Below are positions 1-16,551 of a stretch of 64,000 nucleotides of DNA, piece by piece. Numbering within the stretch: the first letter of the stretch is position 1; each line of letters starts with the position of its first letter. The DNA is taken from positions 212,729 through 276,728 of the forward strand of contig CALCLY010000022.1 in the NCBI GenBank assembly GCA_937966555.1, in the 5' to 3' direction. The notes under the pieces were generated by a model that did no database searches, was not told where the DNA came from, and was given only the letters and a program-made list of their open reading frames with translations. A program made the translations under genes and the position numbers. Origin of the DNA: an uncultured Clostridia bacterium. Its GTDB lineage: Bacteria > Bacillota > Clostridia > UMGS1883 > UMGS1540.

Positions 1-2037
1 ATAAGCCATAATGTTGGTTATCTTTTCCGAATCTCCCCACTGAGTATTCGGTGAAAAAATTCTTATTTCATCTTCGCGGTCTCTCATCGTCTCGCCGCCT
101 TCCAGCTTTGGAAGCAAAATTCCCACCGCTTTTTTCATGGAAATATAGTTACTGAGGATTCCTCCGTTATCCTGTTCATAAACAAGATAACTGTGATCCA
201 CATGTCCGGAATTCTCACGCGGATAATCAAAATCAAGCGTTAAATCTTCTTTGTCTTCCTTAAAGGGTTCGCTTGTATTCTTTTTAGGCGTGCAGATTTC
301 CGATATTAAATCATTTTTATCAAGTTCATATTTAATCACCTGATTTGAAATCACCCCGCCGGGCGAAAGAATTTCTGCGATTTTTTTACCCGTTAAAGTC
401 TCGCCCGAAGCCGTAACTCTTTCCCCGTTAAGTTTTATATTGCCGGCACTGTTATAATTAACTATTTCGCCAAGCGCCACATCAAGCAGTCTGAATGTTG
501 CCCCGTCCTTGCTCGAAATTCCCTTTTTAATCGGACTTGCATCAATAAGATAGGCATAGTTTTTTAAGCCCTCTATTACGCTTGCTCCTGCGATTTTTCC
601 GTTATCGCCCAAAAAGAAAGTATAAACATTTCCGATTTCAATTTCATTTTTTAAACTTTCGGCGCAAAAAGGGTCTGTTTCGTATTCTTTTCCGCCGACA
701 AGTATTTTACTGCCGTTTGTCTCCGAAACTTTGCCTTTCATCTTTTTATCCGACACCCAAACTTTAATAAGTTTTCCGTCCGTACTTTCAATTACCTTTA
801 AAACATTGTTTTTTGATATTGAAGAAAAATCGGTTGCTTCACCGTTTTTGTAAATACAAACTTTAGTGTCATTATTTTCCGACAGGTCAAGCGAGCTTCC
901 GGTGTGTTTATCCGTTACAATTTTAACGTCTGCATAAATGCTGTCGGCAAAATAAATTTTCGGCACCGATGCAAAAATAACGTCAATTTTTCCGTCCCCG
1001 TCTCCATCTGCAAGTCTTAATTCACCGTTGGGGATTAAGATGTCTGCGCGTGAGAATTTTCTTCCGGCGTTGATTCCGTTAAATATATAAACTGCATCTG
1101 CCAGAACGGAAAGTGATTTTTTTGTGCCGTTTTCGTCAAAATACACTATGCGGTTTTCATTTGTATCTTCCGAAACTTCGCTGCAATCCAAATTTATTTC
1201 TTTGACATTTGAATTTACGGAAAAAGTTACGATTTCTCTGTCCGCGCTGTCACTTTCTTTATAATATACCGAAACCTTATAACCCAAGCAGTCATTTATT
1301 GCGCTTTCACTGCTCTTATAAAGTTCATCGTTTATTTTAACAAAACCGTCGTTTACACCGCTTTGCACCGAAAGCGATGTCACGTCATTTGCCTTTACAA
1401 TGCCTGTTTCGGTATCAATGTGTAAATATTTCCGAAGCAGTGTTTCCTCGTAATTTTTTTCATAACTACCGTTAGGATATGAGCAAAACTCCATAGTGTT
1501 TGCGTGCGCCGCATTATAAAGCATTTTTGCCGCCTCAGTCCAGCTTATTTTTTCTCTGCTCTGGTTTACCCCTTTTAAAATTCCCGCTTCGGCAGCGGAA
1601 GTCAAATACCCGACAGGATAACCTCCGTTATACTCCGCATAAGTTTTGTAACCCAGTATACAGCAAAGAATTTTTGCCGCCTGATTAAGCTTTATTGCGG
1701 AATCGGGTTCAAAAGTTTTTTCAGTAACACCTGATACCAAGCCGGCATTATAAGCAAAATTAATTTCCTTGCAATACTTACTTTCTGCCGATACATCTTC
1801 AAACACATTCTCCGCCGGCAAATCCGCCGCTCCCATCAGCTTCACCGCCGCGCTTATAAATGCTCCTCTTGTGACTTCCGAGTTCATATCCATTGATGCG
1901 TCAAGTATTCCTATGTCGTAAAGGACTTTTATCTCATCGGAATAAATATTTGCATCACCGTTTGCCGACACCGCGGCAAATGATACAAATGTCAGCGTTA
2001 ATATTAAAAAAACGGAAAATAATCTTTTAAACATCAT
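1..2037 (-). CDS. Secreted cell-surface protein, C-terminally truncated by the window edge. It has a signal peptide and an SLH-like N-terminal module, and is a paralog of the 41206..43845 product.
   Basis: Minus-strand ORF starting at ATG 2037; the ATGATG start overlaps the TGA stop of the upstream gene. Translation begins MMFKRLFSVFLILTLTFVSFAAVSA. The N-terminal about 150 aa align with the 41206..43845 protein (GYKTYAEYNGGYPVGY versus GYGDYAEYKGGYPSGY). The ORF runs to position 1 without a stop. Confidence 0.6.
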   Translation of the reverse strand, partial: MMFKRLFSVFLILTLTFVSFAAVSANGDANIYSDEIKVLYDIGILDASMDMNSEVTRGAFISAAVKLMGAADLPAENVFEDVSAESKYCKEINFAYNAGLVSGVTEKTFEPDSAIKLNQAAKILCCILGYKTYAEYNGGYPVGYLTSAAEAGILKGVNQSREKISWTEAAKMLYNAAHANTMEFCSYPNGSYEKNYEETLLRKYLHIDTETGIVKANDVTSLSVQSGVNDGFVKINDELYKSSESAINDCLGYKVSVYYKESDSADREIVTFSVNSNVKEINLDCSEVSEDTNENRIVYFDENGTKKSLSVLADAVYIFNGINAGRKFSRADILIPNGELRLADGDGDGKIDVIFASVPKIYFADSIYADVKIVTDKHTGSSLDLSENNDTKVCIYKNGEATDFSSISKNNVLKVIESTDGKLIKVWVSDKKMKGKVSETNGSKILVGGKEYETDPFCAESLKNEIEIGNVYTFFLGDNGKIAGASVIEGLKNYAYLIDASPIKKGISSKDGATFRLLDVALGEIVNYNSAGNIKLNGERVTASGETLTGKKIAEILSPGGVISNQVIKYELDKNDLISEICTPKKNTSEPFKEDKEDLTLDFDYPRENSGHVDHSYLVYEQDNGGILSNYISMKKAVGILLPKLEGGETMRDREDEIRIFSPNTQWGDSEKITNIMAY

Positions 2038-4232
2038 TCACTTACCTCCACTTTTAAATTGTCAAGCAGGAAGCTCACGTCTTTTGCATCCATAAAATTT
2101 CTGAAATCAATTTTGTCTATTGACACAGCCGGTTCTTTTTCGCCTTTTCCGAAGTAATCCGTATTTTTTGCAACAAGTACATCGTCTACATATATTTCAA
2201 TTCTCGGATTACCGGAATTCGGCACATAAACAAATTTTAAATTGTACCAAATGCCTGGCTCTGCTTCGGCAAATTCTTTGCCGAGTCCCACTCCGTTCGT
2301 ACGTTGACTTAATGTCATGGTGCCGCTTTCATTACCGCAAATACACCACTGTATGCCGCTTGAACCGATGGAGTTATAATAAAGCGGTCCCGGAGTTGCC
2401 TTTTTATTCATAAAGTCAAAAGAAACCGTTACCTTTTTCGGCTTTTCTCCCGTATTTACAGGGATAATAAGGCTTGCATCTCCTTTTTGCTTTGTTATCT
2501 CAAAAACATGATTTTCGTTTTCTTCCGAAACTGCGACATAACTTGTAGATGACGCATCTCTTTGCCAGTCGTAAGGATATTTTTTAATTTCATAATCTTC
2601 AAAATCCATGTTGATTCCAATCGGTTTTTGCTTTTTTACGATTTTTGGTGCATCACTTATTTTTTCATATAAATAATCTCTGTATTTGCTCCAAACCTTA
2701 GGTCTGTCATTTATTCCGGCAAGTTTATAAAGATCCGCCCTTAAAAATGCGGTACACAGGTCCGTTCCGTTTAAATCTCCTTCCGGCAAGCCGTACGAAA
2801 CCCACGCAAGCTGCGATGTCGGTGAACTGTTTTCCACCCCCCACGAATATCCTCCGTCAGACTTTTTAAAAGGCTTAATCGCCTCCGTACACACTTTTAT
2901 AAGCTTCGGAACTGCCTCATCAAGCGCCTTTTTTGTCTCTTCTGAAATTTTACCCTTATTTTGATTTATTGCAGAATTAATAGAAGTTACCGCATTCCAC
3001 GGAGTAGCGGCAGTTTGCGCAACATCATGTTCCATAACATAAATTATGCTTTGAACAATTTTATCCACCATAGGAAGAGGACAATCCTCTGAAAAAATGC
3101 TGGAAATTTTCATAACGGCATTAACATTGTCATACGAAAGACCTTCTCCCCAAAGACCGGTTTCCTGATTTTGACGTTCCATTACAAACTTTTGAAGAAG
3201 CGGTCTGAATCCTGACGCTGTAATCATAGACATGGAAGCTGCCATTGTATTACCCGCAATGTATGGATTAGTGTCCCACGGTTCGGCTTCAACCCATTCC
3301 ATAAAAGCCTCTTCGCCTTTAAACTGTGCGGGCAAAGAATCAACCGCTTCATTAGAGTTTTCTTCTTCGCTGTTTTGCGTTTTCTTAATTCTTTCCTCAG
3401 GCGTTAAGTAAAGAGGCTTTCCTCCGAATCTTGCTATAATACTCGTTCCCCACCAAAGATCTCTGCTCTGTCTGCTGGATGTTATTCCTCTACCCCATTG
3501 AGGGTGGTAAAAATAGCCGTCTTCCTCACTTTGAAGAGACTGCGCCCAGTGCAAAGTCCTTTCCTGTACATCAGCAGGATAAATGTTTTTGCTCGGAGGA
3601 TCTGCGTCAAAAAGTCCGGTTTCATCAAAAATATGAAAAGCTTGCTTTGTGCTCTCAACATCGGGCAGAAATTCAAGATTATCACGCGCACTCACAGAAT
3701 AATAATATCCGCCCGTTTCTGGGTCAAAAAGGCTTATTATGTAGTCAAGCAGCTCTTTTGTAAACACATTTTCATCAAATTCATGAAGAGCTTTTAAGAT
3801 TTCGGAACTTACGCTTTTTGTATTTATGCTTACTTGTCTTTTTTCAGCATCCCAGTTTACATCGGCTCCCAGCGACTCGGCAATAAATCTCAGCGGAACA
3901 AGTGTTCGTGATTTTGCTATAACCGGCGGACAATCAATGGCACATTCGACACCGTTTATATTTGCTGTGGTTTTGCCGATGAAAAGTACCGCCGTTGTTT
4001 CGTTGCATGCTATCGAAACACAGGAAGTTTCCACATTCCATGTCACAGTGGCGCCAAGTTTTTCAAAAACCCCTCTGACAGGCACTAAAACTCTTCCGTT
4101 TTCTATAATTGGATTTACATCAAACGAAATCGTCTCGCCGTTTACACTAACTGTCAAAGGCAAAACATTGGCGTATACAGGCAATGCCAGCACTAACGCC
4201 GTCATGACTGTTGCTATGATTTTTTTAAACAT
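2034..4232 (-). CDS. Secreted protein with two copper-amine-oxidase-like N-terminal (stalk) repeats, a large middle domain of unknown function and a C-terminal LamG-like jelly-roll domain.
   Basis: The true start is ATG 4232 (MFKKIIATVMTALVLALPVYA signal peptide, RBS GAGGGAGAGG upstream); the track ORF extends spuriously to 4370. Two repeats match VNG..I.....P.I.NGR.LVP.R...E.LGA.V.W. The C-terminus carries the motif PGIWYNLKFVYV...IEIYVDDVLV. Confidence 0.7.
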   Translation of the reverse strand: MFKKIIATVMTALVLALPVYANVLPLTVSVNGETISFDVNPIIENGRVLVPVRGVFEKLGATVTWNVETSCVSIACNETTAVLFIGKTTANINGVECAIDCPPVIAKSRTLVPLRFIAESLGADVNWDAEKRQVSINTKSVSSEILKALHEFDENVFTKELLDYIISLFDPETGGYYYSVSARDNLEFLPDVESTKQAFHIFDETGLFDADPPSKNIYPADVQERTLHWAQSLQSEEDGYFYHPQWGRGITSSRQSRDLWWGTSIIARFGGKPLYLTPEERIKKTQNSEEENSNEAVDSLPAQFKGEEAFMEWVEAEPWDTNPYIAGNTMAASMSMITASGFRPLLQKFVMERQNQETGLWGEGLSYDNVNAVMKISSIFSEDCPLPMVDKIVQSIIYVMEHDVAQTAATPWNAVTSINSAINQNKGKISEETKKALDEAVPKLIKVCTEAIKPFKKSDGGYSWGVENSSPTSQLAWVSYGLPEGDLNGTDLCTAFLRADLYKLAGINDRPKVWSKYRDYLYEKISDAPKIVKKQKPIGINMDFEDYEIKKYPYDWQRDASSTSYVAVSEENENHVFEITKQKGDASLIIPVNTGEKPKKVTVSFDFMNKKATPGPLYYNSIGSSGIQWCICGNESGTMTLSQRTNGVGLGKEFAEAEPGIWYNLKFVYVPNSGNPRIEIYVDDVLVAKNTDYFGKGEKEPAVSIDKIDFRNFMDAKDVSFLLDNLKVEVSE

Positions 4233-5889
4233 TATTATCCTCTCCCTCAAGTAATTTTTTAAGTTCACCGAAAGGTTCGGCATTCGCAGTCCTCTTTCCG
4301 AATATACTTTTCGCAGCAGTTTTAATCCACTGAGCCGAAACGCCGTATGTGCAGATATAGTTTTTGGCAAACCGAATTTTTTCTATATCAAACGGCGAAT
4401 TCATCGCCACAACAACCAGTGTCTTTCCTGTTTCAAAAAGCTTTTTTGCCAATACACCCTGATTTTCATACAATATTGCATCACACGAACCGAAAACAAT
4501 TATATCCGCATCTTTGCTCATTTGTAATGCTTTTTCTATATCTGCATCATCTGGATTCAATTTTGTGATAAGTGTCGTTACATTTTCGCAATAATCCGAC
4601 AGAGCTTTCGGCAGCATGTCAACAGACTGTTCGTCATCCATAGCCGATGCGATTTTTTGAGGTTCGACCGTTATTGCCAGAATTTTTTCATCCGGTCTGA
4701 TCGGGAGATTTTTTCCGCGGATTACGGAAACACTTTTCTCCGACAAATCGCAAAGCAATTTACGGTGTTTTTCGCATCCAACCGTTTCCAAAGCTTTTTT
4801 TCCGTCAGCATACGGATTTTCAAAAAGATTTGCTTTTTCTTTTAATTTAAAAATTCGTTTTACAGACTCATTTATTCTTTCTTCGCTTATCTCACCGTTT
4901 TCTGCCGCACTTAAGAGCGCGTTATATCCTTCATAAAAATGATCTTTATCTCCTCTCAGCAAAACAAGATCACAACCTGCATGAATTGCCATAACCGTTG
5001 CTTTCCCGGTTCCGTAATTATCCTGTATCGCCCTCATTCTCATAGCATCGGTCATAACCACACCGTCAAATCCGAGCTTCTTTCTCAAGAGTCCGCTCAC
5101 AACCTTTTCGGAAAGTGTTGCAGGTGCACTGCTGTCTATTGCCTCAACGATTACATGTCCTATCATAATCGCCTCAAGCCCTTCATTTATAAGCCTTTTA
5201 AACGGAACCAGATCCTCTTTTTCAAGTTCGTCAAGATTTTTTTCAATACGCGCCGTACCCTTATGAGCATCAGTTGCGATTGACCCATAACCCGGAAAAT
5301 GCTTTGCAATTGAAATAAGCCCTCCGTCATTATATCCTTTATGCATGCAAGACGCCAGCGCCGCAACTTTATCGGGTACCATTCCGAATGAAGCGGATTT
5401 AATCGTTTTTCTCCCTTCGTATTTTAAAACGTCCAAAATCGGTGACTGAACGGTATTTATCCCCATAGATTTAAATTCTTCAGCCATAGACTTTGCAATA
5501 TCATAGGAAAGTTTCAAATCGTCCGCAATGCCAAATGCCATATGTCCGCTGAAAACCATTGCCCCGGCTCTGTCTATATCGCACCTTGTACTGCCTTCCT
5601 GGTCAACCGTGATAAGCAGCGGATTTTTATGTCTGCGGTTCATTGCAAGTTTCTGAAGCGAATTTATAAAATCCGCAGTTTCATCCGGAGTAAAATATTT
5701 ATTGGGCTTTCCTACAACACGGCTTGAATTATCATATTCCGCATCGGGACAATAACGCAGAGCTCCGATATTCAACTCCTCAATCATAATTTTTAAATCA
5801 TCGGATATTTTATCGGACTGCAAAATCGGCACGCATAATTGTCCGATTTTCTCTCTCAAAGTCATTTTCTTAATTATTTCGTCAGTCAT
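4225..5889 (-). CDS. Glycoside hydrolase family 3 (NagZ-like beta-N-acetylhexosaminidase or beta-glucosidase); cytoplasmic, no signal peptide.
   Basis: 554 aa with GH3 motifs KHFPGYG and GFDGVVMTDAMRMRAI. ATG at 5889 is preceded by GGGAAGGGAATG. The stop overlaps the downstream start (ATGTTTAA). Confidence 0.85.
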   Translation of the reverse strand: MTDEIIKKMTLREKIGQLCVPILQSDKISDDLKIMIEELNIGALRYCPDAEYDNSSRVVGKPNKYFTPDETADFINSLQKLAMNRRHKNPLLITVDQEGSTRCDIDRAGAMVFSGHMAFGIADDLKLSYDIAKSMAEEFKSMGINTVQSPILDVLKYEGRKTIKSASFGMVPDKVAALASCMHKGYNDGGLISIAKHFPGYGSIATDAHKGTARIEKNLDELEKEDLVPFKRLINEGLEAIMIGHVIVEAIDSSAPATLSEKVVSGLLRKKLGFDGVVMTDAMRMRAIQDNYGTGKATVMAIHAGCDLVLLRGDKDHFYEGYNALLSAAENGEISEERINESVKRIFKLKEKANLFENPYADGKKALETVGCEKHRKLLCDLSEKSVSVIRGKNLPIRPDEKILAITVEPQKIASAMDDEQSVDMLPKALSDYCENVTTLITKLNPDDADIEKALQMSKDADIIVFGSCDAILYENQGVLAKKLFETGKTLVVVAMNSPFDIEKIRFAKNYICTYGVSAQWIKTAAKSIFGKRTANAEPFGELKKLLEGEDNNV

Positions 5890-5906
5890 AATTCATTCCC
5901 TTCCCG

Positions 5907-5926
5907 TTACTAACGCGCGTTCGAAA
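5907..5926. promoter_or_regulatory. Imperfect 20-bp palindrome TTACTAACGC|GCGTTCGAAA; candidate operator for the adjacent LacI-family regulator.
   Basis: Perfect core AACGCGCGTT, with 8 of 10 positions symmetric. It lies about 20-35 bp upstream of the GH3 start codon and shares the half-site TTTCGAACGC with the site at 12743..12762. Confidence 0.35.
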
Positions 5927-6022
5927 TAGCCGATATAATAAGTTGCAGTTAAAAAACCGCAACTTGAGTACTTACTGTTATTCGAAAACAATCGCTTTAT
6001 TGTACAATCTAAATTTAATTAT

Positions 6023-7063
6023 TTAAACAGTGGTTTTTCTGTATACCGGCTTAGCTTCAAAGATATCTTCCGTGCACTCTTTCCCATTTTTGTTTATTAT
6101 TTCAATTGCCCTTGAAACCGCCTTACCTGCCATTTCGATAATCGGCAATTTACAAGTTGTCAGAGGCGGCAGCGTATATCTTGCAAACGGAGTATCGTCA
6201 AATCCTATTATTGCTATATCCCGCGGAATTTCCAACCCGAAACTGCTTATTCTTTCCATAACCGCAATTGCAACATCATCGTTAATACACGCAAAAACCT
6301 CAGGAAGTCTTTTATTTTCCAGCAATGTATTAATCTTCTCCGCGGCAATCCTCGGCGACATTTTGCAGTCTATCATAAATTTATCTTCTGCTTCAAGAGA
6401 ATTTTCCTTCATTGCATCCATAAAACCTCTGTACTTCTCATCACAGATATATCTCCCGACATCTGCATAAATCATTCCTATTTTTCTGTACCCTCTGTCT
6501 ATAAGAAACTGTGTATTTTTTTTATATGCTGTATAAGAATTGAACGAAACGCAAGCCATCTGTTTTCTCAGAAGCTTCTTCTCTTCAAATTCTTTTTTCT
6601 CATGGCTGATAAAAACCATAGGGTAAGGCAGCGATGCGATACTGAGCATATCGTCACTTACACTCACCAATATTGCCGCATCGATTCTTTTTTCTTCAAA
6701 AGCACTTTTTACAATATCATATCCGTCATCTTTGCTTATCTTGTTCACCGTAACATAATAGCCGCTGCTGTTTGCCCGGTCTATAACGGCATTTAAAAGC
6801 GGAGAGTAATAATTGTTATCAAAAATCAGCTTTTCTTTTGGAAGCGATGAATCTACATTCATAAAAAAACCTATAGTATTTGTTTTTCCTCCCGCAAGAA
6901 CCCTTGCTGAAAAATCAGGTGTATACCTGCACTCCCTTATTACATTCAAAACTCTCTCTCTCGTCTCATCCTTAACGTCGGGATAATTGTTTATAACCTT
7001 TGAAACAGTTGCTCTCGAAACCCCTGCCAGTTTTGCAATATCTTCACTTTTCAAAACAGCCAT
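6023..7063 (-). CDS. LacI-family transcriptional regulator.
   Basis: N-terminal HTH MAVLKSEDIAKLAGVSRATVSKVINNYPDVKDETRERV followed by a periplasmic-binding-protein-like sugar-binding fold. RBS AAAGAGG upstream. Confidence 0.9.
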   Translation of the reverse strand: MAVLKSEDIAKLAGVSRATVSKVINNYPDVKDETRERVLNVIRECRYTPDFSARVLAGGKTNTIGFFMNVDSSLPKEKLIFDNNYYSPLLNAVIDRANSSGYYVTVNKISKDDGYDIVKSAFEEKRIDAAILVSVSDDMLSIASLPYPMVFISHEKKEFEEKKLLRKQMACVSFNSYTAYKKNTQFLIDRGYRKIGMIYADVGRYICDEKYRGFMDAMKENSLEAEDKFMIDCKMSPRIAAEKINTLLENKRLPEVFACINDDVAIAVMERISSFGLEIPRDIAIIGFDDTPFARYTLPPLTTCKLPIIEMAGKAVSRAIEIINKNGKECTEDIFEAKPVYRKTTV

Positions 7064-7079
7064 ATTCTACCTCTTTAAA

Positions 7080-8165
7080 TTACATTTCATTTGTGTGATT
7101 CCACGTTTTAAATATTTCTCTCCACACATCTGTATGTGCTTCGCAATCAAGATAATGCGCAAAAAGCTGAAAACTGTCCATGCAGTCATCTATCTTATGG
7201 TCGCATAAAACACTTTTGTAACGTTCCGCATTCTCCATGCAAAAATCATGCCAGTGTTTTTCCCATTCGCCGCTTTTGATGTACTCATTTCGTGTTTTAA
7301 ATTCATTAAGAATTTTATTTTTTCTTTCCGAACCGGCAAGCTCGATACCCTTTCCGTTTGCCGCAACAGGAATAAACTCAATATCGGATTTATTCTTATC
7401 AACCGTTAATCTGACCATAAGTCCTTCCAAAAAGCTCTCGTCGTGCGTACTTTCTATAAAATGAAAATTACCCTGTCCGTACAGTATATGAGCATTGTTG
7501 AATTTTTCGTAACAGCCTATAATATGACTGTGCTGGCAAAATACAGCGTCGGCACCGCACAAAGCCATTTCTCTGCATGCCTTCATAAGACGCGGCGAAG
7601 GATATCTGCAAAATTCTTTTCCGCCGTGATAAATAACGATAACATAATCGGACAGAGCCTTTGCCTTCCTGATATCTTCCATTGTCTGGAACTCATCAAA
7701 AGGTCTTGTCCCGACCCTGTTGCAAGTGGCATAAGAGTATTCATGTTCACACACATTTATAACAGATACTGAAAAATCTCCATCTTTCAGCATTAAATCA
7801 TTGCGTGATTTTTCATAGTTTTCTCCGACACCCGTGTATCTCATTTTATTCTCATCAAGTATCTTCAGCGTATCGTAAAAACCTTTTTTACCAAAATCAA
7901 AAATATGGTTATTGCTGAGCATGCAAGTATCAACCCCTGCATTTTTCAGTGTTTTAACCGTGCCTTTCGGACCTTTAAGACACGGACCGTATTTTCTTAT
8001 TCCCTGTTTGTGCTCTGTTACAGCACACTCAAGATTCACAATAACTGTATCGCTTTTTTTAAATTCTTCAATTACACTTCCAAACGCTCCGCGTGCATCT
8101 TCGTTTTCAAAACATTCTTTACTTTCATCTGTCGGGCACAAATCGCCGCATATAAGTAAATCCAT
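7080..8165 (-). CDS. CapA/PgsA-like metallophosphoesterase (PGA_cap family) without a membrane anchor.
   Basis: Motifs MLSNNHIFDFG and VIVIYHGGKEF are typical of CapA-family calcineurin-like phosphoesterases. The start was trimmed to ATG 8165 (GGAGAGGTG RBS), because the track ORF would begin inside the -10 box of its own promoter. Confidence 0.7.
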   Translation of the reverse strand: MDLLICGDLCPTDESKECFENEDARGAFGSVIEEFKKSDTVIVNLECAVTEHKQGIRKYGPCLKGPKGTVKTLKNAGVDTCMLSNNHIFDFGKKGFYDTLKILDENKMRYTGVGENYEKSRNDLMLKDGDFSVSVINVCEHEYSYATCNRVGTRPFDEFQTMEDIRKAKALSDYVIVIYHGGKEFCRYPSPRLMKACREMALCGADAVFCQHSHIIGCYEKFNNAHILYGQGNFHFIESTHDESFLEGLMVRLTVDKNKSDIEFIPVAANGKGIELAGSERKNKILNEFKTRNEYIKSGEWEKHWHDFCMENAERYKSVLCDHKIDDCMDSFQLFAHYLDCEAHTDVWREIFKTWNHTNEM

Positions 8166-8261
8166 TACACATTCACCTCTCCGTTTTATGTATAAAGCAA
8201 TATGACTAAAATTCGGTGCCGCCCATAAACAATCGTCAAACCGCTTCTCAAACACGTGTTC

Positions 8262-8290
8262 ATTATAACATGTTTTGTATACTCTGTCAA
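8262..8290 (-). promoter_or_regulatory. Sigma-A type promoter for the CapA-like/LacI/GH3 cluster.
   Basis: On the minus strand: TTGACA, 17-nt spacer, TATAAT. Confidence 0.5.
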
Positions 8291-8318
8291 TATTTTTGCA
8301 AATATTTTTAAAATTGTA

Positions 8319-8348
8319 TTGACATTCAATCCCTTGCCGTTGTATAAT
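8319..8348 (+). promoter_or_regulatory. Sigma-A type promoter for the serine-hydrolase/HAD operon, divergent from the previous promoter.
   Basis: TTGACA, 18-nt spacer, TATAAT. The track ORF start at 8347 lies inside the -10 box, so the real start is 8425. Confidence 0.5.
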
Positions 8349-8424
8349 GAACGCGTGTTCGGAAACTGCGCCCTCTCAATCCGATTTTTCCCGCATATCA
8401 ATTCAATATATAACGGAGGAAATC

Positions 8425-9909
8425 ATGTTAGAAAAAACCACTCCCGAAAAAGTCGGGATATCATCAAAAAACATAAAAAAATTTATTTCGGTACTTGAAA
8501 AAAATCATCTTTCAACTCATGCCGTTTTAATGATGCGGCACGGAAAGGTTTTTTATGAAAATTACCGATACCCTTTTAATGCCGATTATCTTCACAGAGT
8601 TTATTCCGTGTCCAAGAGTTTTGTGTCTCTTGCAATAGGCTTTCTTGCAGATGACGGAATAATTGACATTGATGCACCCATGGTAAATTATTTACCTTCA
8701 TATGCCGCAGAAACCGACAATGAAAACATTAAAAAACAAACGATACGGGATATGCTTATGATGAGCACCGGTGCTCCGCAGGAAAACAGCTATTGGTTTT
8801 CGTATAAACCGCAAGACCGTCTTAAGGAATATTTTAATGCGAGCAGGAAAGAACGCGGCGGAACATCAAAACTGCCCGGAACACTGTTTGACTATGACAG
8901 TCCCGGATCATTCGTGCTATGCTGTATTGCCGAAATTCTCAGCGGCAAAAATATAATCGACTATTTACGCGAAAAATTTCTTGATGCAATCGGATTTTCA
9001 AAAGAAGCATACTGTCTTTCCTGCCCCGGAGGTCATTCGTGGGGAGACTCCGGAATTTTATGCAAAGCTTCGGATCTCGCCCTGGTCGTGCAGTTTCTTC
9101 TCCGGGAAGGAAAGTGGAACGGAAAGCAGCTTTTAAGCAAAAAATATGTGAAAGAAGCAACTTCAAATCTTATAAATTCAAACGAAACCGGCTTTCTCAC
9201 TCCATGTGATTACGGATACGGATTTCAGATCTGGAAAACTGAACGAAACGGATTTTATTTTAACGGTATGGGTTCGCAATTTGCTGTGGGAGTACCCGAT
9301 AAAGATATGGTCTTTGTTATTTTTTCTGACAATCAGGGTCACCCCGCCCCGAGCACAGTTATACTGAACAGATTTTTTGAAGAAATTGTTGAAAAAGCAG
9401 ATGATTTTCCCATTACGGACAATGACGGCTCATTCAGCGAGCTTAAAAAATATTCGGAAACTCTGGAACTTTTTTCGTTAAAAAATGACATTTTGCAAAA
9501 TATTTACGAAAATGAATATATTATGGATCCGAATCCGATGGGAATAACTCGTTTAAAAATTACTGTTTCGGAAAGTGAGGGAATACTTAATTATACCAAC
9601 GCACAGGGCGAAAAGAGTTTAAAATTCGGAATAAACAAAAATATCTTCGGAATTTTTCCCGAGGAAGGTTATTCCGATCTTATCGGCAACAGGTTTGCAC
9701 CCGGTAACTATTACAAATGCGCTTCAAGCGCTTGCTGGACGCATAAAAACTGTCTTTCAATCCTTGTTCAGATTATCGATAAGTACTTTGGCAGACTGTA
9801 TATGCGAATATCATTTACGAAAGAAAACAAAATCAGTCTCATAATGAAAAAAAATGCCGAAGACTTTCTGCAGACATACAACGGGTATGCAGAAGGGAGT
9901 TTAAAATGA
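8425..9909 (+). CDS. Beta-lactamase-family serine hydrolase (class C beta-lactamase/esterase-like).
   Basis: SxxK motif SVSKSF near the N-terminus of the PF00144-like fold. GGAGGAAATC RBS before ATG 8425. Confidence 0.75.
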   Translation: MLEKTTPEKVGISSKNIKKFISVLEKNHLSTHAVLMMRHGKVFYENYRYPFNADYLHRVYSVSKSFVSLAIGFLADDGIIDIDAPMVNYLPSYAAETDNENIKKQTIRDMLMMSTGAPQENSYWFSYKPQDRLKEYFNASRKERGGTSKLPGTLFDYDSPGSFVLCCIAEILSGKNIIDYLREKFLDAIGFSKEAYCLSCPGGHSWGDSGILCKASDLALVVQFLLREGKWNGKQLLSKKYVKEATSNLINSNETGFLTPCDYGYGFQIWKTERNGFYFNGMGSQFAVGVPDKDMVFVIFSDNQGHPAPSTVILNRFFEEIVEKADDFPITDNDGSFSELKKYSETLELFSLKNDILQNIYENEYIMDPNPMGITRLKITVSESEGILNYTNAQGEKSLKFGINKNIFGIFPEEGYSDLIGNRFAPGNYYKCASSACWTHKNCLSILVQIIDKYFGRLYMRISFTKENKISLIMKKNAEDFLQTYNGYAEGSLK

Positions 9910-10715
9910 AAAAAGATTTTTTTATAGGAATAGATTCTGACGGAACAGCATTCAACTCAATGGAAATCAAACATAAAAAGTGTTTTATTCCGGCAATGTT
10001 TGAGATTTGGAGCGACCTTGACGCCGAAGCAGCAGCCGCTGCCGAAAAAATAAATCTGTATTCCTCCACGCGCGGAATAAACAGATTTTCCGGATTATTA
10101 CTGATGTTTAAGTTTATGCAATCCAAAGGGATAGATGTTCCGGATTATTCTTCTTTTGAAATGTTTATGAATTCCGGAACAGAACTCTCAAATGACGGAC
10201 TTGAACAATATCTTAAAAATACAAACGATTCTTTTTTAAAAGAAGTTTTGCTGTGGAGCAAAAATGCCGATGAAAAATTCAAAATCGAAACGCAGCATCT
10301 GAAACCCTTTAAATACGTGGAAAACGCTTTAAAAACAGCCTGCAAATATGCTGACATTGCCGTTATTTCATCTGCTTCATACGATTCTCTGAAAAAAAGC
10401 TGGAGAGAAGGCGGAATAATTCAATATGTTTCCCATATAATGGGACAGGAACAGGGGGCAAAAAAAGAGCAGCTTAAAAAACTTGCACAAAACAGTTATA
10501 ATCCCGACAAAATACTCATGATAGGAGACGCCCCCGGCGATATTAAATCCGCAAAAGCCGTCGGTGCATTATTCTATCCGATACTCACAAATCACGAAGA
10601 AAACTCTTGGAAAATGTTTTGCGATACAGCTTTTGAAAAGTTTATTGCGGGCGCTTATAAAGGGGACTTTGAAAACCGTCTCATATCGGATTTTAACAGC
10701 ACGTTTGCAAACTGA
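9906..10715 (+). CDS. HAD-superfamily hydrolase (phosphatase).
   Basis: Motif I IGIDSDGT and motif IV MIGDAPGD. The ATGA start/stop overlap with the upstream gene indicates translational coupling. Confidence 0.75.
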   Translation: MKKDFFIGIDSDGTAFNSMEIKHKKCFIPAMFEIWSDLDAEAAAAAEKINLYSSTRGINRFSGLLLMFKFMQSKGIDVPDYSSFEMFMNSGTELSNDGLEQYLKNTNDSFLKEVLLWSKNADEKFKIETQHLKPFKYVENALKTACKYADIAVISSASYDSLKKSWREGGIIQYVSHIMGQEQGAKKEQLKKLAQNSYNPDKILMIGDAPGDIKSAKAVGALFYPILTNHEENSWKMFCDTAFEKFIAGAYKGDFENRLISDFNSTFAN

Positions 10716-10718
10716 AAT

Positions 10719-10758
10719 GTGCGGCACAGGAACACACCACAGCTTCTGTGCCGCACAA
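10719..10758. terminator. Bidirectional intrinsic terminator between the convergent HAD hydrolase gene and the 10764..12707 gene.
   Basis: Perfect 12-bp inverted repeat TGTGCGGCACAG ... CTGTGCCGCACA with a 16-nt loop, flanked by A/T runs. Confidence 0.6.
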
Positions 10759-10763
10759 ATCAT

Positions 10764-12707
10764 TTAATTTAATGTAACACGCACTTCTTTATCGGGTTTA
10801 AACATATTTGACGTTGTGTATTGAAACAGATTAACATCAAAATATCTCTGAAATTCCGGTTCTTTTTTATACATATATTTAACCATGTCAAGCCATTTTT
10901 TGTATGCTTCCCCATCTTCTTTTTTAGCTTTAAAATATACGCACTCCGCATATTTTTTCACAAATGTGCAATGCAGATTTATAAGCTGCCACGATACACT
11001 TATGCATCTTAAAACACCTGTGAAATTATCAGAGCATTTCTTTTCAAACTCTTCTGCATCAAGCTGTATTTTTTTCATTTTACCACAAAGAATTTCAATT
11101 TCATCTTCCGTAAGATTCCATTTATTTTGAATCATATATTTAAATTCAAAAGCTTCGCTTACTTTCTTCAGAAAATTATAAACGCTTTTCCAATCTTCAC
11201 CGTATGCGGCAGAAAAATATTCCTCCGCCAGTTCATTAAAATCAGCATTTTTATCAAAAAGTTTTCTTCCGTACACATATTGAGGAAAACCGTTCGGAAA
11301 GAATCCTCTCTGGGTTTGATCTTCAATAATACCGCAGATACCGCATTTATCCAATGCCGCAATATCATCATATACACACTTTGCAACAGACATGTAACCC
11401 GGGTCTCTGTAATGAACCCAGTGGAAATGATATTCGTATGCAATTGTGTCTCCGTCAAACTTTTTCTTCCAAAGGTCAAGATAAGCAAGATTCTCCCCCA
11501 TGCCTTTGGGCAAAGTAACATTGTTTCTTTGATATTTCGATACGCTCCCTATTTTTACAGGCTGTGCATAGCTCTCGTCATAAGTCCTTGTAATCGGCGC
11601 AAAAAGCATTGCAAATCTTTCTGTATTTTTAATTTTTTCATATACGGGCGCCCACAGTAGGTCGCAATACACAATAAATACTATTTTAACGGAATTTTTG
11701 CGTTCTTCAAGTTCTTTATCTATTTCATTGAGCAATATAACGTACCAATCTGCTACATCTTTTTTTGAACATTCCGCACATTCACAGTGATTGTTATGTG
11801 CATCTGCAAGCCATACGTGAAGATAATCCACATGCGAATGTTTTTCCGCGTAATCGGCAATGCAATTAACCACCGCACGGCGCGCCGATGTATTTGACAT
11901 GCATATATTGGTATTAATCGCCGCATTTTCAAAAAGCTCTCTTTTGCCGTCAATTTCGGCAATATACTTTTTTACATTATCCCCTATATTTATTTTTTCT
12001 TTGGTTCTGTCATCCCAGCCGCCGGTTGTATCTATTCCGAACGCATCGGCACACCAGCCGTGACCCATATCGTGAAACAAAAGTCCTCTTTTTGTTATTT
12101 CCGCCTCGCACTGTCTCTTCCACTGTAAAACCGTTTCGTTCAAAACCGCCTGATTCGGCTGATACGGATTACCGCGATGTTCATACCAAAGCCTGTAATA
12201 TGCCTGCGGAATGTCAAATTCAAGCATCATGGTATTTAAACCTATCTTAGGAATAAAATCAATCGTTTCAAGCATGTTTTCCTGTGCCTCGCTGCCCTCG
12301 TTGCACTGTCCCCTAAAGCGTTTTGTGGCGGTGATATGACAGCTGACTTTTTCGAGCGGCTTTACCGGTATTTTTTCTCCGTCAACTCCGGGAAACAGCC
12401 AGATACATCCGTTTTTTCTCAGGTATTCATACACACCGAGCAGTACACTTCTCTCATTGCTTCCGGCAATAATACCGCCGTGTTCATCTGCGTCTATGTA
12501 TATCGAGTCATCAAGATATGTGTTTCCTTTTGCATAGCTTTCAAGCCCGAAATCACGCATCAGGCCTATTTTCAGCCCCTCCCCTTTGTCTGCACCGACG
12601 AATATTTCCGGAGCGTTTTTTCGCGGCTCCATCATCATGATATACTTTTTAAGCTCTTCGGCGGCAAAATCCACAACATGGTTTTGTGAAAACTTGTATA
12701 TATCCAT
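10764..12707 (-). CDS. Putative cytoplasmic glycoside hydrolase (DUF4838-like or hexosaminidase-like fold); function uncertain.
   Basis: 647-aa ORF with a strong RBS AAAGGAGGAAAAA and no signal peptide. Family assignment rests on recollection of a CECAECS-containing DUF4838-type architecture, not on a search. Confidence 0.5.
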   Translation of the reverse strand: MDIYKFSQNHVVDFAAEELKKYIMMMEPRKNAPEIFVGADKGEGLKIGLMRDFGLESYAKGNTYLDDSIYIDADEHGGIIAGSNERSVLLGVYEYLRKNGCIWLFPGVDGEKIPVKPLEKVSCHITATKRFRGQCNEGSEAQENMLETIDFIPKIGLNTMMLEFDIPQAYYRLWYEHRGNPYQPNQAVLNETVLQWKRQCEAEITKRGLLFHDMGHGWCADAFGIDTTGGWDDRTKEKINIGDNVKKYIAEIDGKRELFENAAINTNICMSNTSARRAVVNCIADYAEKHSHVDYLHVWLADAHNNHCECAECSKKDVADWYVILLNEIDKELEERKNSVKIVFIVYCDLLWAPVYEKIKNTERFAMLFAPITRTYDESYAQPVKIGSVSKYQRNNVTLPKGMGENLAYLDLWKKKFDGDTIAYEYHFHWVHYRDPGYMSVAKCVYDDIAALDKCGICGIIEDQTQRGFFPNGFPQYVYGRKLFDKNADFNELAEEYFSAAYGEDWKSVYNFLKKVSEAFEFKYMIQNKWNLTEDEIEILCGKMKKIQLDAEEFEKKCSDNFTGVLRCISVSWQLINLHCTFVKKYAECVYFKAKKEDGEAYKKWLDMVKYMYKKEPEFQRYFDVNLFQYTTSNMFKPDKEVRVTLN

Positions 12708-12742
12708 TTTTTCCTCCTTTTCCGTTCAAAAAATTACACCTT

Positions 12743-12762
12743 TCGAACGCGTGTTCGTGTAA
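12743..12762. promoter_or_regulatory. Candidate operator, TTTCGAACGC|GTGTTCGTGT; second copy of the TTTCGAACGC half-site palindrome.
   Basis: Lies immediately downstream of the -10 box of the 10764..12707 gene promoter, in a repressor-type position. It shares CGCGTTCGAAA with the reverse complement of the site at 5907..5926. Confidence 0.35.
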
Positions 12763-12764
12763 CC

Positions 12765-12793
12765 AGTATAACATATATAAATGATGATGTCAA
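12765..12793 (-). promoter_or_regulatory. Sigma-A type promoter of the 10764..12707 gene.
   Basis: On the minus strand: TTGACA, 17-nt spacer, TATACT. Confidence 0.5.
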
Positions 12794-12794
12794 T

Positions 12795-12864
12795 CTCATT
12801 TTATAATAAAATCCCCTCAAAACAGTTTAGAAACTTTGCAATTTCAAATATCTGTTCTGAGGGG
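12795..12864 (-). terminator. Putative terminator of the DUF11 gene.
   Basis: 13-bp stem CCCCTCAAAACAG / CTGTTCTGAGGGG with one mismatch, a long 26-nt loop and a U-rich tract on the minus strand. Confidence 0.35.
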
Positions 12865-12926
12865 AAAACTCTATTTTCCGAAGACTATATATACAGTGTT
12901 ATTGTCTGTGTCCGTAAAAATATGCT

Positions 12927-13781
12927 TTAAATCTGTCCCGTAAGTTTAAGTGTGCTTATACCCGGCGTCACCGTCCACACGCCTGTCTCGGTGTTTTGCG
13001 TACAGCTTGCCGCAGGAACCGTTATCGTTCCCTGCGTTGTCGCAAATTCACCGGAAACCAGATCGTATGTGTAACCGGTGCCGGCTGTAAGGAGCGTATC
13101 GTTTAAATAAACATTAAGCGATGTCAAAACAGGATTTAACGTATCCGATATAATAACGTTTTCATCAGCCGTTACAGCCGTACCGCCCGTATTCTGAATT
13201 AAAATTGTATACGTTACCTCACTGCACCCCGTCAAAACTTCGGGCGAAACAGACTTGCTTATCGACAGCGCGGAACCCGTCTTTGCATTAACCGTTTCGG
13301 TTGCCGATACAAGATCCGAAATTCCGCACCCCGAAAGGCTTGCCGTGTTTGTTATACTTCCCTGCGCACACGGCGGAGCATAGCTGTTTGCTTCCGCTTC
13401 GTAAATAAGCGTTATATTTCCGTTTGCGGGAACTGCTATTCCCGTAACCGAAAGCGGCGGTCCTGCCGAAACAGTCGGCGCCGCAGTCGGATCACCGTTT
13501 ACGAAATACTTAAGCGAATCCGCCACATATGTCAGCGGCGTCACTTTAAGCTCACCGAGAGTATATTCTCCGAGATTGTCCGAAAACGTCAGATCCGTAT
13601 AGGCGTTTGCACCTGAGTTTACAGCGTTGATGGCATAAACCACTTTATCCCCCGGCGAATATTCGCTTGAAAGCGCGGTTTTTGTCAGCGTAAGCGTCTC
13701 CGTAATCTCAGCCGTTACAATATTTGAATAGACTTCCTTTCCTCCATAGGAAAGCTTTGCCTGGTTGTAAAAAGCTGCCAT
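12927..13781 (-). CDS. DUF11 (conserved repeat domain, TIGR01451-like) protein with two repeats; Thr/Ala/Gly-rich, no signal peptide; possibly a spore-surface or cell-surface structural protein.
   Basis: Two repeats of the form LTLTKTALSSEYSPGDKVVYAINAVNSG...L.F.D.L and LSISKSVSPEVLTGCSEVTYTILIQNTGGTAVTADENVIISDTL. GGAGG RBS. Locally GC-rich, and monocistronic with its own terminator. Confidence 0.65.
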   Translation of the reverse strand: MAAFYNQAKLSYGGKEVYSNIVTAEITETLTLTKTALSSEYSPGDKVVYAINAVNSGANAYTDLTFSDNLGEYTLGELKVTPLTYVADSLKYFVNGDPTAAPTVSAGPPLSVTGIAVPANGNITLIYEAEANSYAPPCAQGSITNTASLSGCGISDLVSATETVNAKTGSALSISKSVSPEVLTGCSEVTYTILIQNTGGTAVTADENVIISDTLNPVLTSLNVYLNDTLLTAGTGYTYDLVSGEFATTQGTITVPAASCTQNTETGVWTVTPGISTLKLTGQI

Positions 13782-13861
13782 AATTTATTCCTCCGTAAAT
13801 TTTTAAAAGAATGACAAAATCACCCTTCATTTTACAGTTTATGACGGCAGCTTTCAAATTG

Positions 13862-14992
13862 CTACATAAGAGGCATTCCGTTTTCTATTTTCCAAAGCAC
13901 CGTGAGCATACGCGGAAGATGGAAAGGGCCTTTAAATATATTTCCTTTAAGAGTATTTGCAACGGTTCCGTCATAATGCAGATAGCCGTACCACTCGCCG
14001 TTTTTGTCATCGGCAAAATGCGTCATAACATAATGGAGAAGCTTTTCAAAATTTTCTTTGTATTTAACATCTCCCGTAACTTCATAGCAAAGTCTGTTTG
14101 CAATTATTGCCTCGCACTGCGGCCACCAAAGCTGCATATCCCACTCGAGAGCGCCGGCAGGTCTGCCTTTAATATCGCAAAATGCTATAATAGCCCCGTT
14201 TTTAAGTCCGAGTTCCATGGAAACATCGGTAAGTCTCTGTGCTTTCTTTATAAGCTCTTTGTCGTTTCTTATTATGCCTTCATTCATCAGGAACCACGCA
14301 CATTCAAGGCTGTGACCGGGATTTACGGTTCTGCCCGTTGGATTATCGACAAACTCTCCGTCCGGTGCAACGTTTTCAAGCATTGCAAAATCTTTAACAT
14401 TGCCGTTTACAGTGAGGCTTTCTATCATCTCCGTTACAATATCGTCAAACTTTTTATCAAGTTTTCTGATCACCTGAGCCGTTGAAAGCATAATCATTGC
14501 AGGTGACGCAGCTTTGTAAGAAGCGGTTTCGGGATTAAACTTCGGCGTTGTCTTTGAAGGGTCTTTGAAAATTCCGTACGCTGTTTCAAAATATTTATAT
14601 GCCTTTTCCTTTGCCTCCTCATCTCCGGTTGCCAGATAATACTCCGCACAGCCTATCGCGGCAAACGTTTCGGAATAATAATATCTTCTTTTCTGAATCT
14701 CTCTTCCGTCACGCGTTACCGTGAAAAACATTCTGCCGTCTTTATCTGTGCACTTGTCAAGAAAACCGTAAATAAGCTTTGCCGCATCGAGATACTCGTC
14801 TCTTTTCTCAACAGAATTATAAACACTGCTGAAAATATAGAGCGCTCTTCCCTGAAACCATACGCTTTTCTCTTCTCCGTAAATCTTTCCTTCTTCGTCA
14901 AGACAGGTGAAGATGCCTCCGTATTCGCGGTCCAATGCATTGTCAAGCCAAAATTTAAGTACATTTTCCGTTAAATAGTTTTTAAAATCCAT
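13862..14992 (-). CDS. AGE-family sugar epimerase/isomerase (N-acylglucosamine 2-epimerase or cellobiose 2-epimerase-like).
   Basis: (alpha/alpha)6 AGE signature through the length (WFQGRALY, GHSLECAWFL, DMQLWWPQCEA). Start trimmed to ATG 14992 (GGAGAT RBS). Confidence 0.8.
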   Translation of the reverse strand: MDFKNYLTENVLKFWLDNALDREYGGIFTCLDEEGKIYGEEKSVWFQGRALYIFSSVYNSVEKRDEYLDAAKLIYGFLDKCTDKDGRMFFTVTRDGREIQKRRYYYSETFAAIGCAEYYLATGDEEAKEKAYKYFETAYGIFKDPSKTTPKFNPETASYKAASPAMIMLSTAQVIRKLDKKFDDIVTEMIESLTVNGNVKDFAMLENVAPDGEFVDNPTGRTVNPGHSLECAWFLMNEGIIRNDKELIKKAQRLTDVSMELGLKNGAIIAFCDIKGRPAGALEWDMQLWWPQCEAIIANRLCYEVTGDVKYKENFEKLLHYVMTHFADDKNGEWYGYLHYDGTVANTLKGNIFKGPFHLPRMLTVLWKIENGMPLM

Positions 14993-15045
14993 AATGATCT
15001 CCATTCTGCCGCACATTGACGGCGTAAATTATATAATTATATTTA

Positions 15046-16395
15046 CTATGCAAAAATTACATCCGGTCTTAAAGCTGTTTCCTCAATCAGCTTATCAAGC
15101 GATCTATCTGCGTCCCACATAAGTTCCGCCATCAAAGCTACCGGGAACGGTATCCCGTTTTCAATGGCTCCGTCCTCGCAAAGTGCGGTTATAACGGAAT
15201 CCTCTTTAAAGTCACTTATAATGCTCTGAGCAAAACGTGCGTTTTTAAGCCAAAATCCCTGAACATATTTCCAAACGCGTCTTTTTTCTTCAAATTTGTT
15301 TTTTATAAACTCCTCATCATTTTCTCCGAGAACAAATACTCCTCTTTGATGCTTGAAAGTTCCCCAGTCAAGGCAAATAAGACCTTTGAGCACTGCGCCG
15401 AAACCGTTTTTGCTCTCCTGAAGCTGTTTTGAAAATCTTTTCGTCTCTTCAAAGTTTCTGACATCAGATGCAAGATATGCATATGGGAACGAACCGCAGT
15501 CTTCCCATATTATATCTATTCTCTCATCAAGTGCGGCAAGTTTGTCAATATCATCTTTTACGCTTGTTGCATGAAGTCCGAACATAAGCTGAAGTTTCGG
15601 ACTGATTTCAAATATTTTTGCCGCGGTCTCGTTAACAAATTCCGTCACGCGTTCGGCAATATTTTTGCCGCCTATATCAGCTTTTGCAGTCTCCGTGAAT
15701 GACTGAAAATAAATTCCGTCCACCGGAAGATGCGCGAAATCTTTTTTGTATGTTTCCACAACGCTTTCCGTAAGCGGCGCCAGATCCGATATATCCGTCA
15801 TAGCAGCATCGGCCGTGTTCCACCCCCACGCGAATCCGAGATAGATGTAAATGCCGTTTTTGTGCGCATAAGAAATAACTTCATCTACATTTTCAGGTAC
15901 AAAATCATTCCATATAATAAGCGTATTAAGCTTTAAATTTACCATTATATCAATATACTTTTTATAATCGTATATAACATATCCCCACGACCAAAAACCG
16001 CGGTGCTTTATTTTCGGAACGGATTTAAAATCATACTCGGGAACTTTACCTTCAAAAGCCGGCTTTAAATAGTATGGCATGCTGTGAGTATTTGCGTATT
16101 CCGCAATCGGAATATACTTGTTTTCAAATTCCGAAACCGCATAAAGAAGCATAATTTCGTCTTCGCCGAGAATCTTTATTATCTGTTTTTCCTTTCCGCG
16201 TGCATTGTCTTTTGCGGAAATCTCTATTCCCTTGTCGCAAAAACCTACATATATGATATTTTCACTCCATATATCATCTCCGGCACTGTCCGCACTGTAA
16301 ACTTCCGGTTTACAGCACAGCTTTTCGGACATTATTTTCACTGTTCTCTCTTTGGCTTCACATTCCTTTTCGTAAACTATAACCCATTTTTCCAT
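15046..16395 (-). CDS. Hypothetical cytoplasmic TIM-barrel-like protein, putative glycosidase or phosphorylase; first gene of an operon with the AGE epimerase.
   Basis: 449 aa starting at ATG 16395 (GGAGGAATGGAG RBS). Segments NTLIIWNDF and NGIYIYLGFAWGWN suggest a glycoside-hydrolase-like barrel. No family could be assigned by eye. Confidence 0.55.
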   Translation of the reverse strand: MEKWVIVYEKECEAKERTVKIMSEKLCCKPEVYSADSAGDDIWSENIIYVGFCDKGIEISAKDNARGKEKQIIKILGEDEIMLLYAVSEFENKYIPIAEYANTHSMPYYLKPAFEGKVPEYDFKSVPKIKHRGFWSWGYVIYDYKKYIDIMVNLKLNTLIIWNDFVPENVDEVISYAHKNGIYIYLGFAWGWNTADAAMTDISDLAPLTESVVETYKKDFAHLPVDGIYFQSFTETAKADIGGKNIAERVTEFVNETAAKIFEISPKLQLMFGLHATSVKDDIDKLAALDERIDIIWEDCGSFPYAYLASDVRNFEETKRFSKQLQESKNGFGAVLKGLICLDWGTFKHQRGVFVLGENDEEFIKNKFEEKRRVWKYVQGFWLKNARFAQSIISDFKEDSVITALCEDGAIENGIPFPVALMAELMWDADRSLDKLIEETALRPDVIFA

Positions 16396-16448
16396 ATGAA
16401 AATCTCCATTCCTCCGCTTTACAGCAGCACAAATCAAATCTTATTTTC

Positions 16449-16477
16449 AGTATAATTCACTTTTTTGACTTTTTCAA
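16449..16477 (-). promoter_or_regulatory. Sigma-A type promoter for the 15046..16395 / AGE operon.
   Basis: On the minus strand: TTGAAA, 17-nt spacer, TATACT. Confidence 0.45.
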
Positions 16478-16507
16478 TAACATTTTTGACTTAAAAATAT
16501 AACACAC

Positions 16508-16536
16508 TTGACTTTTTGAACAAAGTATGCTATAGT
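16508..16536 (+). promoter_or_regulatory. Sigma-A type promoter of the araC-family gene, embedded in three direct repeats TTTTTGACTT with 21-22 bp periodicity (16465, 16486, 16508).
   Basis: TTGACT, 17-nt spacer, TATAGT. Two further TTGACT copies sit upstream at two-turn spacing in the divergent region. Confidence 0.5.
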
Positions 16537-16551
16537 TAATTCGGTGATTGT

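Follow-up and report, generated by a model that had tools for sequence, protein, structure and literature searches.

Which genes are controlled by the LacI-family repressor encoded in a 64,000-nucleotide stretch of an uncultured Clostridia bacterium (contig CALCLY010000022.1, positions 212,729 to 276,728; hereafter the window), and through which DNA sites would it act? The repressor gene (lacI, 6023-7063, minus strand) is surrounded by genes for putative glycan-active and secreted proteins. An initial annotation of this DNA had described a 20-bp palindromic motif at two sites, each upstream of a glycosidase gene, and had named the LacI-family protein as the obvious candidate for a repressor that would link two otherwise separate loci into one regulon. 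The analysis reported here points to four sites in three intergenic regions, which are very likely the operators of this repressor.

Probable operator sites and promoters around lacI

The first site of the initial annotation (5907-5926, TTACTAACGCGCGTTCGAAA) is found as described, 17 nt from the ATG of the GH3 gene (5889) and 97 nt past the lacI stop (6023), with two mismatches to the ideal 20-mer TTTCGAACGCGCGTTCGAAA. The second site is real as well, although its coordinates (12743-12762) were 2 bp off: the 20-mer that aligns to the palindrome is 12741-12760 (TTTCGAACGCGTGTTCGTGT, four mismatches to the ideal). The half-site reported as identical in both is an exact 11-mer, CGCGTTCGAAA, present in opposite orientations at 5916-5926 (+) and 12741-12751 (-). 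The motif length of 20 bp did not hold up. Conservation of the outer TTT/AAA flanks is inconsistent among the sites, and the conserved operator unit is a 14-bp even palindrome with a central CG, nGAAC(G/A)CG(C/T)GTTCn. When all 20-mers and 14-mers of the window were ranked against the palindrome, two further sites that had been missed were found at 8249-8262 and 8348-8361, which brings the number to four:

5910..5923: operator O1, CTAACGCGCGTTCG; in the spacer that separates lacI from GH3, 21-34 nt before the GH3 ATG
8249..8262: operator O4, CAAACACGTGTTCA, which reads TGAACACGTGTTTG on the minus strand; begins with the final T of the -10 box in the CapA-like/lacI promoter
8348..8361: operator O3, TGAACGCGTGTTCG; begins with the final T of the -10 box in the serine-hydrolase/HAD promoter
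12744..12757: operator O2, CGAACACGCGTTCG on the minus strand; 7 nt past the -10 box in the DUF4838 promoter

All four operators have 0-1 mismatch to the core GAACRCGYGTTC, and the cores of O3 and O2 are identical (13/13). At one mismatch or fewer the core matches five times in the window versus 0.55 times expected, a tenfold excess, and none of 100 dinucleotide-preserving shuffles reached five matches. The 11-mer and the 20-mer of the initial annotation were dropped as motif definitions in favor of the 14-bp core: the 11-mer alone (≤1 mismatch) gives two matches versus 3.2 expected, which is within chance, and the 20-mer (≤3 mismatches) matches the first site only. The fifth match to the core (3896-3907, GAACAAGTGTTC) carries AG in place of the central CG, lies inside a secreted-protein coding region and is not kept at the syntenic locus of a related species (L002, see below); it is probably a chance occurrence. 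A literature search with the motif core as a literal string yielded nothing but primers and unrelated sequences.

Three of the four sites lie at strong promoters. In a scan of 5800-13000, the three best sigma-70 promoter matches (12/12, 12/12 and 11/12) are exactly those that abut O3, O4 and O2, and all three are kept in L002:

8262..8290, minus strand: promoter of the CapA-like/lacI operon, TTGACA-17-TATAAT, 12/12, with TG extension
8319..8348, plus strand: promoter of the serine-hydrolase/HAD operon, TTGACA-18-TATAAT, 12/12
12765..12793, minus strand: promoter of the DUF4838 gene, TTGACA-17-TATACT, 11/12, with TG extension

The placement of O2, O3 and O4 at the -10/+1 region is the classical repressor position. 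As the three operators are located on or just past the -10 box, a bound repressor should block the binding or the escape of RNA polymerase. O4 is the predicted autoregulatory site of the lacI operon. Longer open reading frames that open at 8255 and 8347 begin upstream of the true starts of the CapA-like gene (8165) and the serine hydrolase gene (8425), which are given by ribosome-binding sites and by gene calls on identical contigs; with these starts, O3 and O4 are intergenic.

The closest relatives of the regulator are 99%, 96% and 79% identical to it, and no further one exceeds 41%. The 79%-identical protein is encoded at L002. There, each of the four sites has a counterpart in the equivalent position that matches the core perfectly; that of O1 is CGAACGCGCGTTCG. 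The intergenic regions of the window and L002 are only 69-78% identical and differ by large indels; the conserved islands within them are the -35, -10, operator and ribosome-binding elements. L002 (8270-9997) lacks the beta-lactamase-fold hydrolase gene, and its CapA-like gene is cut to 204 amino acids. Despite this gene loss the divergent promoters and operators are intact, the operators even perfect, which indicates that the control elements of the regulon change more slowly than its set of genes.

The regulator and its relatives

The regulator contains a LacI-type helix-turn-helix (PF00356, E 1.2e-17, residues 8-50) and an effector domain that matches PF13377 (Peripla_BP_3, E 1.6e-24) and PF00532 (Peripla_BP_1, E 3.5e-16). 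Full-length matches are found to the structures of PurR, CcpA and RbsR. The hinge (...SARVLAG...) aligns with ...VARGLAS... of CcpA, and its Leu56 is invariant in the subfamily alignment; by analogy with the PurR and CcpA structures, this residue would insert at the central CpG of the operator. The protein ends at about the length of the dimeric PurR and CcpA chains and appears to lack the C-terminal extension by which E. coli LacI tetramerizes. For these reasons, no DNA loop between the two operators that lie 99 bp apart is proposed.

To the distant relatives of the regulator belong five loci with LacI homologs of 36-41% identity, from Clostridium thermarum, Paenibacillus athensensis, Paenibacillus sp. 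CAA11 and two metagenome contigs. In all five, the regulator gene is followed by a GH94 phosphorylase gene (cellobiose-phosphorylase-like by family), and two copies of [TC][AT]AACGCG[CT]GTT[CTA][AG] are present: the first lies 25-35 nt ahead of the regulator gene, the second between the two genes. The DNA-binding domain (residues 6-65) is highly conserved in the subfamily alignment, whereas the effector domain is not. A position weight matrix was trained solely on the ten sites of these five loci and then scanned over the window (~64,000 positions). It ranks the four sites of the window 1-4:

Rank 1, start 5907 (O1): 22.65 bits
Rank 2, start 8345 (O3): 20.62 bits
Rank 3, start 12741 (O2): 16.01 bits
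Rank 4, start 8246 (O4): 13.31 bits
Rank 5, start 28870 (next best): 11.37 bits

In 500 first-order Markov simulations, the probability of at least four hits at 13 bits or more was 0.006, with no requirement on their location. A scan of species-representative genomes with the LacI protein returned only an irrelevant 25%-identical Desulfobacterales protein. The GH94-linked regulators, which are uncharacterized, are the closest sequence relatives outside the lineage. They share with the window regulator the conserved DNA-binding domain, the motif and the arrangement of sites, in which one precedes the regulator operon and the other separates the regulator from a downstream glycan-active gene. 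Apart from the low overall identity and the poorly conserved effector domain, they differ in that they control a single GH94 gene, whereas the gene set of the window is larger, different and devoid of GH94.

A characterized operator of the same type is known from GlyR3 of Clostridium (Acetivibrio) thermocellum. According to PMC5483248, which cites Newcomb et al. 2007, GlyR3 binds TGAACGCGCGTACA near the celC transcription start in an electrophoretic mobility shift assay and is released by laminaribiose. The GlyR3 locus was retrieved from a metagenome via the published glyR3 cloning primer, with celC and glyR3 both present; there, the operator AATGAACGCGCGTACATT is located 8 nt after a TATAAT box. 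The two regulators are 34% identical (BLASTP, E 1e-55), with 36/60 identical residues in the DNA-binding domain, and have in common the recognition helix GVSRATVS(K/R)VINN, in which only K/R differs, and the hinge ...AR.LAG. The GlyR3 operator TGAACGCGCGTACA matches the idealized consensus TGAACGCGCGTTCA at 13/14 positions, and the window sites differ from it at 2-4 of the 14, mostly at outer bases and R/Y positions. Similar, too, is the layout, with the operator just downstream of the -10 box and a regulator gene that is part of the regulated cluster and (here by prediction) autoregulated. Given the shared recognition helix and hinge and the near-identical operator, the window protein very probably has a GlyR3-like DNA specificity.

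The sensor domain, in contrast, has diverged from that of GlyR3, and the inducer is therefore probably not laminaribiose. The predicted targets differ as well: GH3, DUF4838, CapA-like, serine hydrolase and HAD genes here, celC and licA in the celC-glyR3-licA operon. Four operators and four transcription units stand against one main operator for GlyR3, and no celC, licA or GH94 gene is found in the window. Because sensor domain and target genes differ, the window regulator is not regarded as a GlyR3 ortholog. In the LacI-family regulons surveyed by Ravcheev et al. 2014 (PMC4052901), operators are even palindromes with a central CG in 1173/1303 regulators, 72% of the regulators are autoregulated, and the sites mostly lie 30-140 nt upstream of start codons. 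Compared with the local LacI sugar regulons of that survey, which likewise control neighboring carbohydrate genes, the system described here is the same in kind, and only its gene content is unusual.

Alternative readings of the sites

A chance similarity or a non-regulatory repeat could be suspected from the 11-mer, which alone is not above expectation, and from the fifth core-like match inside a coding region. That match, however, has neither the central CG nor a counterpart in L002, while the refined core is tenfold over expectation. The four sites are all located in promoter regions no more than 7 kb from the regulator; they are kept in another species and were recovered by an independently trained matrix. 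Together with the occurrence of the motif at the distant loci, this effectively refutes a chance origin, whose probability is close to nil. Another candidate protein is CcpA, if the sites were catabolite-responsive elements (cre) that serve carbon catabolite repression instead of a local sugar-specific repressor. The motif does resemble cre in outline (TGAA...CG...TTCA), a resemblance also remarked by the GlyR3 authors. CcpA belongs to the same protein family, its operator is likewise a 14-bp even palindrome with a central CG, and among solved structures the DNA-binding domain of the window protein is closest to that of CcpA, after one uncharacterized LacI protein. Every site nevertheless has 3-5 mismatches to the degenerate cre consensus WTGNAANCGNWNNCW in either orientation. 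Positions 5 and 10 are C and G in all sites of all loci, as opposed to A and T in cre, and the recognition helix of the window subfamily has Arg at residue 17, where CcpA has Met. The motif tracks one LacI subfamily across genera, and the local protein reaches 117.9 bits versus an equivalog cut-off of 442 for the CcpA model TIGR01481. With these consensus mismatches and this model score, the assignment to CcpA was rejected as highly improbable; the window protein is best described as a local regulator, CcpA being a global one.

A different objection concerns the identity of the repressor within the subfamily. A paralogous GlyR3-type LacI protein encoded elsewhere in the genome, for example a GH94-linked one, could be the main user or a co-user of the sites, and the local protein would then not be their (sole) regulator. 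In every locus examined, the motif immediately adjoins the regulator gene; in the window, this gene is embedded among the four sites, the promoter of its own operon carries O4, and no second LacI-family gene is present in the 64 kb. A paralog as the main or additional user is accordingly judged improbable, if somewhat less so than CcpA. Several points nonetheless weigh against the local LacI protein as the repressor at four operators. The motif is common to the whole subfamily with its conserved DNA-binding domain, and the search for a paralog covered 64 kb of the genome. Phylogenetic footprinting within the lineage draws on one other species only. O4 is the weakest site, its 13.3 bits being within the range of random sequence. 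O1 has no convincing promoter of its own in the scan of 5800-13000, so that its mode of action is uncertain.

To these points the comparison with four other strains of the same species (L009-L012, 99.2-99.5% identical over 7 kb) adds the variability of two operators. While O1 is invariant, O3 and O4 at the divergent promoters have four variable positions in their 28 bp, which amounts to 9.5% of the operator positions compared (4/42 bp) versus 1.6% overall (110/7040). O3 varies at motif positions 6 and 9, and the central CG of O4 is lost in three of the four strains. All four changes are CpG-to-TpG/CpA transitions, so the R/Y degeneracy of the motif looks like the decay of an ideal GAACGCGCGTTC. 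The polymorphism could reflect CpG hypermutability, possibly through methylation, or a tuning of operator strength, and autoregulation through O4 may be weak or strain-variable. Weighed against these points, the position of the sites at promoters, their conservation in L002, the motif and matrix from distant homologs and the GlyR3 operator and recognition helix support the LacI-family gene at 6023-7063 as the regulator, in agreement with the initial annotation.

Gene content and proposed regulation of the cluster

The genes of the cluster were mapped by Pfam and NCBIfam scans and by gene calls on identical metagenome contigs:

1-2034, minus strand: second secreted protein gene of the GH3 operon; starts at 2034 and runs off the window
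2034-4232, minus strand: secreted protein with a copper-amine-oxidase N-terminal-type domain, GH3 operon
4225..5889, minus strand: GH3 beta-N-acetylglucosaminidase-like protein, 554 amino acids (PF00933, E 2e-68); first gene downstream of O1
6023..7063, minus strand: LacI-family repressor, 346 amino acids, with a GlyR3-type DNA-binding domain
7080..8165, minus strand: CapA-like (PGA_cap) protein, 361 amino acids (PF09587); first gene of the lacI-containing operon
8425..9909, plus strand: beta-lactamase-family serine hydrolase, 494 amino acids (PF00144)
9906..10715, plus strand: HAD-family hydrolase; 4-nt overlap with the serine hydrolase gene, same operon
10764..12707, minus strand: DUF4838 protein, 647 amino acids (PF16126, 32.5 bits, the sole Pfam match)
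5940..5965, minus strand: hairpin 3' of lacI with an 11-bp stem and a 4-nt loop, followed by AUUAUAU (-16.7 kcal/mol, z = -3.1)

What had been taken for two separate loci is one contiguous cluster of about 12.7 kb with four presumed transcription units, including that of lacI itself. The genes within 1..4232 are assigned to the GH3 operon because they overlap or abut, and the tightly packed gene order of this operon is the same in L002 and L009. The organism recurs in metagenome assemblies (at least 21 contigs), and public assemblies include contigs of more than 1 Mb that encode this exact LacI protein.

In all likelihood, an autoregulated GlyR3-type LacI repressor controls these four units. 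A LacI dimer would bind the 14-bp palindrome via its helix-turn-helix, with the hinge Leu56 at the central CpG, and on O2, O3 and O4 it would sterically block the three strong promoters. The units repressed in this way would be the CapA-like gene with lacI (negative autoregulation), the genes for the beta-lactamase-family serine hydrolase and the HAD phosphatase, and the DUF4838 glycosidase-like gene. The fourth unit would comprise the GH3 N-acetylglucosaminidase-like gene and the secreted cell-surface proteins. Its operator O1 sits in the leader between lacI and GH3, between the lacI hairpin and the GH3 ribosome-binding site, where the repressor might obstruct a weak promoter nearby or transcription that reads through from lacI. 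The hairpin, whose stem is kept in L002 with G-U pairs, is a probable lacI terminator, possibly a leaky one, upstream of O1. Rfam and tRNA scans of the window gave no matches. A sugar would bind to the C-terminal sensor domain and release the repressor; the GH3 N-acetylglucosaminidase-like enzyme in the regulon suggests that this inducer is probably an N-acetylhexosamine-containing oligosaccharide.

The initial annotation had called both flanking genes glycosidases. For the GH3 protein, the nearest solved relatives are the GH3 N-acetylglucosaminidases 6k5j, 4zm6 and B. subtilis YbbD/NagZ. Its score of 161.6 bits lies below the cut-off of the NCBIfam NagZ equivalog (207), and the substrate specificity is therefore a putative one. 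The gene at 10764-12707 encodes a DUF4838 protein, for which a search of the PDB by sequence gave no match. Its AlphaFold model (pLDDT 92) has GH20, GH67, GH115, GH138 and GH84 enzymes as top Foldseek matches, with E about 1e-12, TM scores of 0.45-0.55 and about 10% identity; a function as glycosidase is plausible from this similarity of fold. Three DUF4838 homologs are found in varied sugar loci (GH31, GH20, ABC transporters, AraC regulators), contexts that are consistent with a glycosidase without pointing to a substrate. A cluster of the form H-x-W-L-A-D-A-x-N-N-H-C-E-C-x-x-C (residues about 297-313) is invariant or near-invariant in 29 diverse homologs and points to a possible metal site beside the putative active site of this uncharacterized glycosidase-like family. 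Between the operator and the ribosome-binding site (12708-12757; 6227-6276 in L002), the DUF4838 leader is identical at 41/41 positions in the two species. The rest of this intergenic region is far more diverged, and the conservation of the leader exceeds what the operator alone explains.

The PDB relatives of the serine hydrolase are esterases and amidases. For the CapA-like protein, the only named NCBIfam relative is the lasso-peptide C-terminal epimerase MslH (E 4e-8, far below the cut-off), and the only PDB sequence match is 8gq9 (E about 1e-3), a chain named poly-gamma-glutamate synthesis protein.

Two further regions of the window contain glycan-related or regulatory genes. Upstream of the DUF4838 gene, the region 12927-17364 encodes a DUF11-repeat protein, an N-acylglucosamine 2-epimerase-family protein, a 463-amino-acid protein without family match and a divergent AraC-type regulator; these genes are syntenic in L002. 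Between them and the DUF4838 promoter lies a strong hairpin (about 12816-12866). No LacI motif is found among them, so they probably form a neighboring AraC-controlled unit. Further away, on the minus strand, 36691-57564 holds a separate cluster with a GH20 gene, two heparinase II/III-like genes, an FG-GAP repeat protein, an SLH-domain surface protein and several large proteins without a Pfam match. This cluster contains no copy of the LacI motif.

In kind, the system is a routine local regulon of the LacI family, and its value lies in the annotation of an unusual and poorly annotated gene set. One switch would tie together DUF4838, a soluble CapA-like protein, a beta-lactamase-fold hydrolase, a HAD phosphatase and surface proteins, all of them poorly understood, and their tie to a GH3 N-acetylglucosaminidase-like enzyme suggests a shared substrate. 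The gene set, with its cytoplasmic GH3 N-acetylglucosaminidase, beta-lactamase-fold amidase/esterase, HAD phosphatase, CapA-like enzyme and DUF4838 glycosidase, gives rise to a tentative idea that is rather doubtful at present: a regulator with a GlyR3-type DNA-binding domain and a diverged sensor might control a so far undescribed route for the breakdown or salvage of a glycoconjugate that contains N-acetylhexosamine, perhaps cell-wall muropeptides; such a route may be comparable to the NagZ/AmiE muropeptide rescue of Bacillus subtilis. If true, this would provide a first functional handle on soluble CapA-like proteins and on DUF4838, of which Clostridia contain thousands of homologs. For the repressor family, the GlyR3 operator would be extended to a wider subfamily in which the DNA specificity has been kept while the target genes, and probably the effector, have changed.

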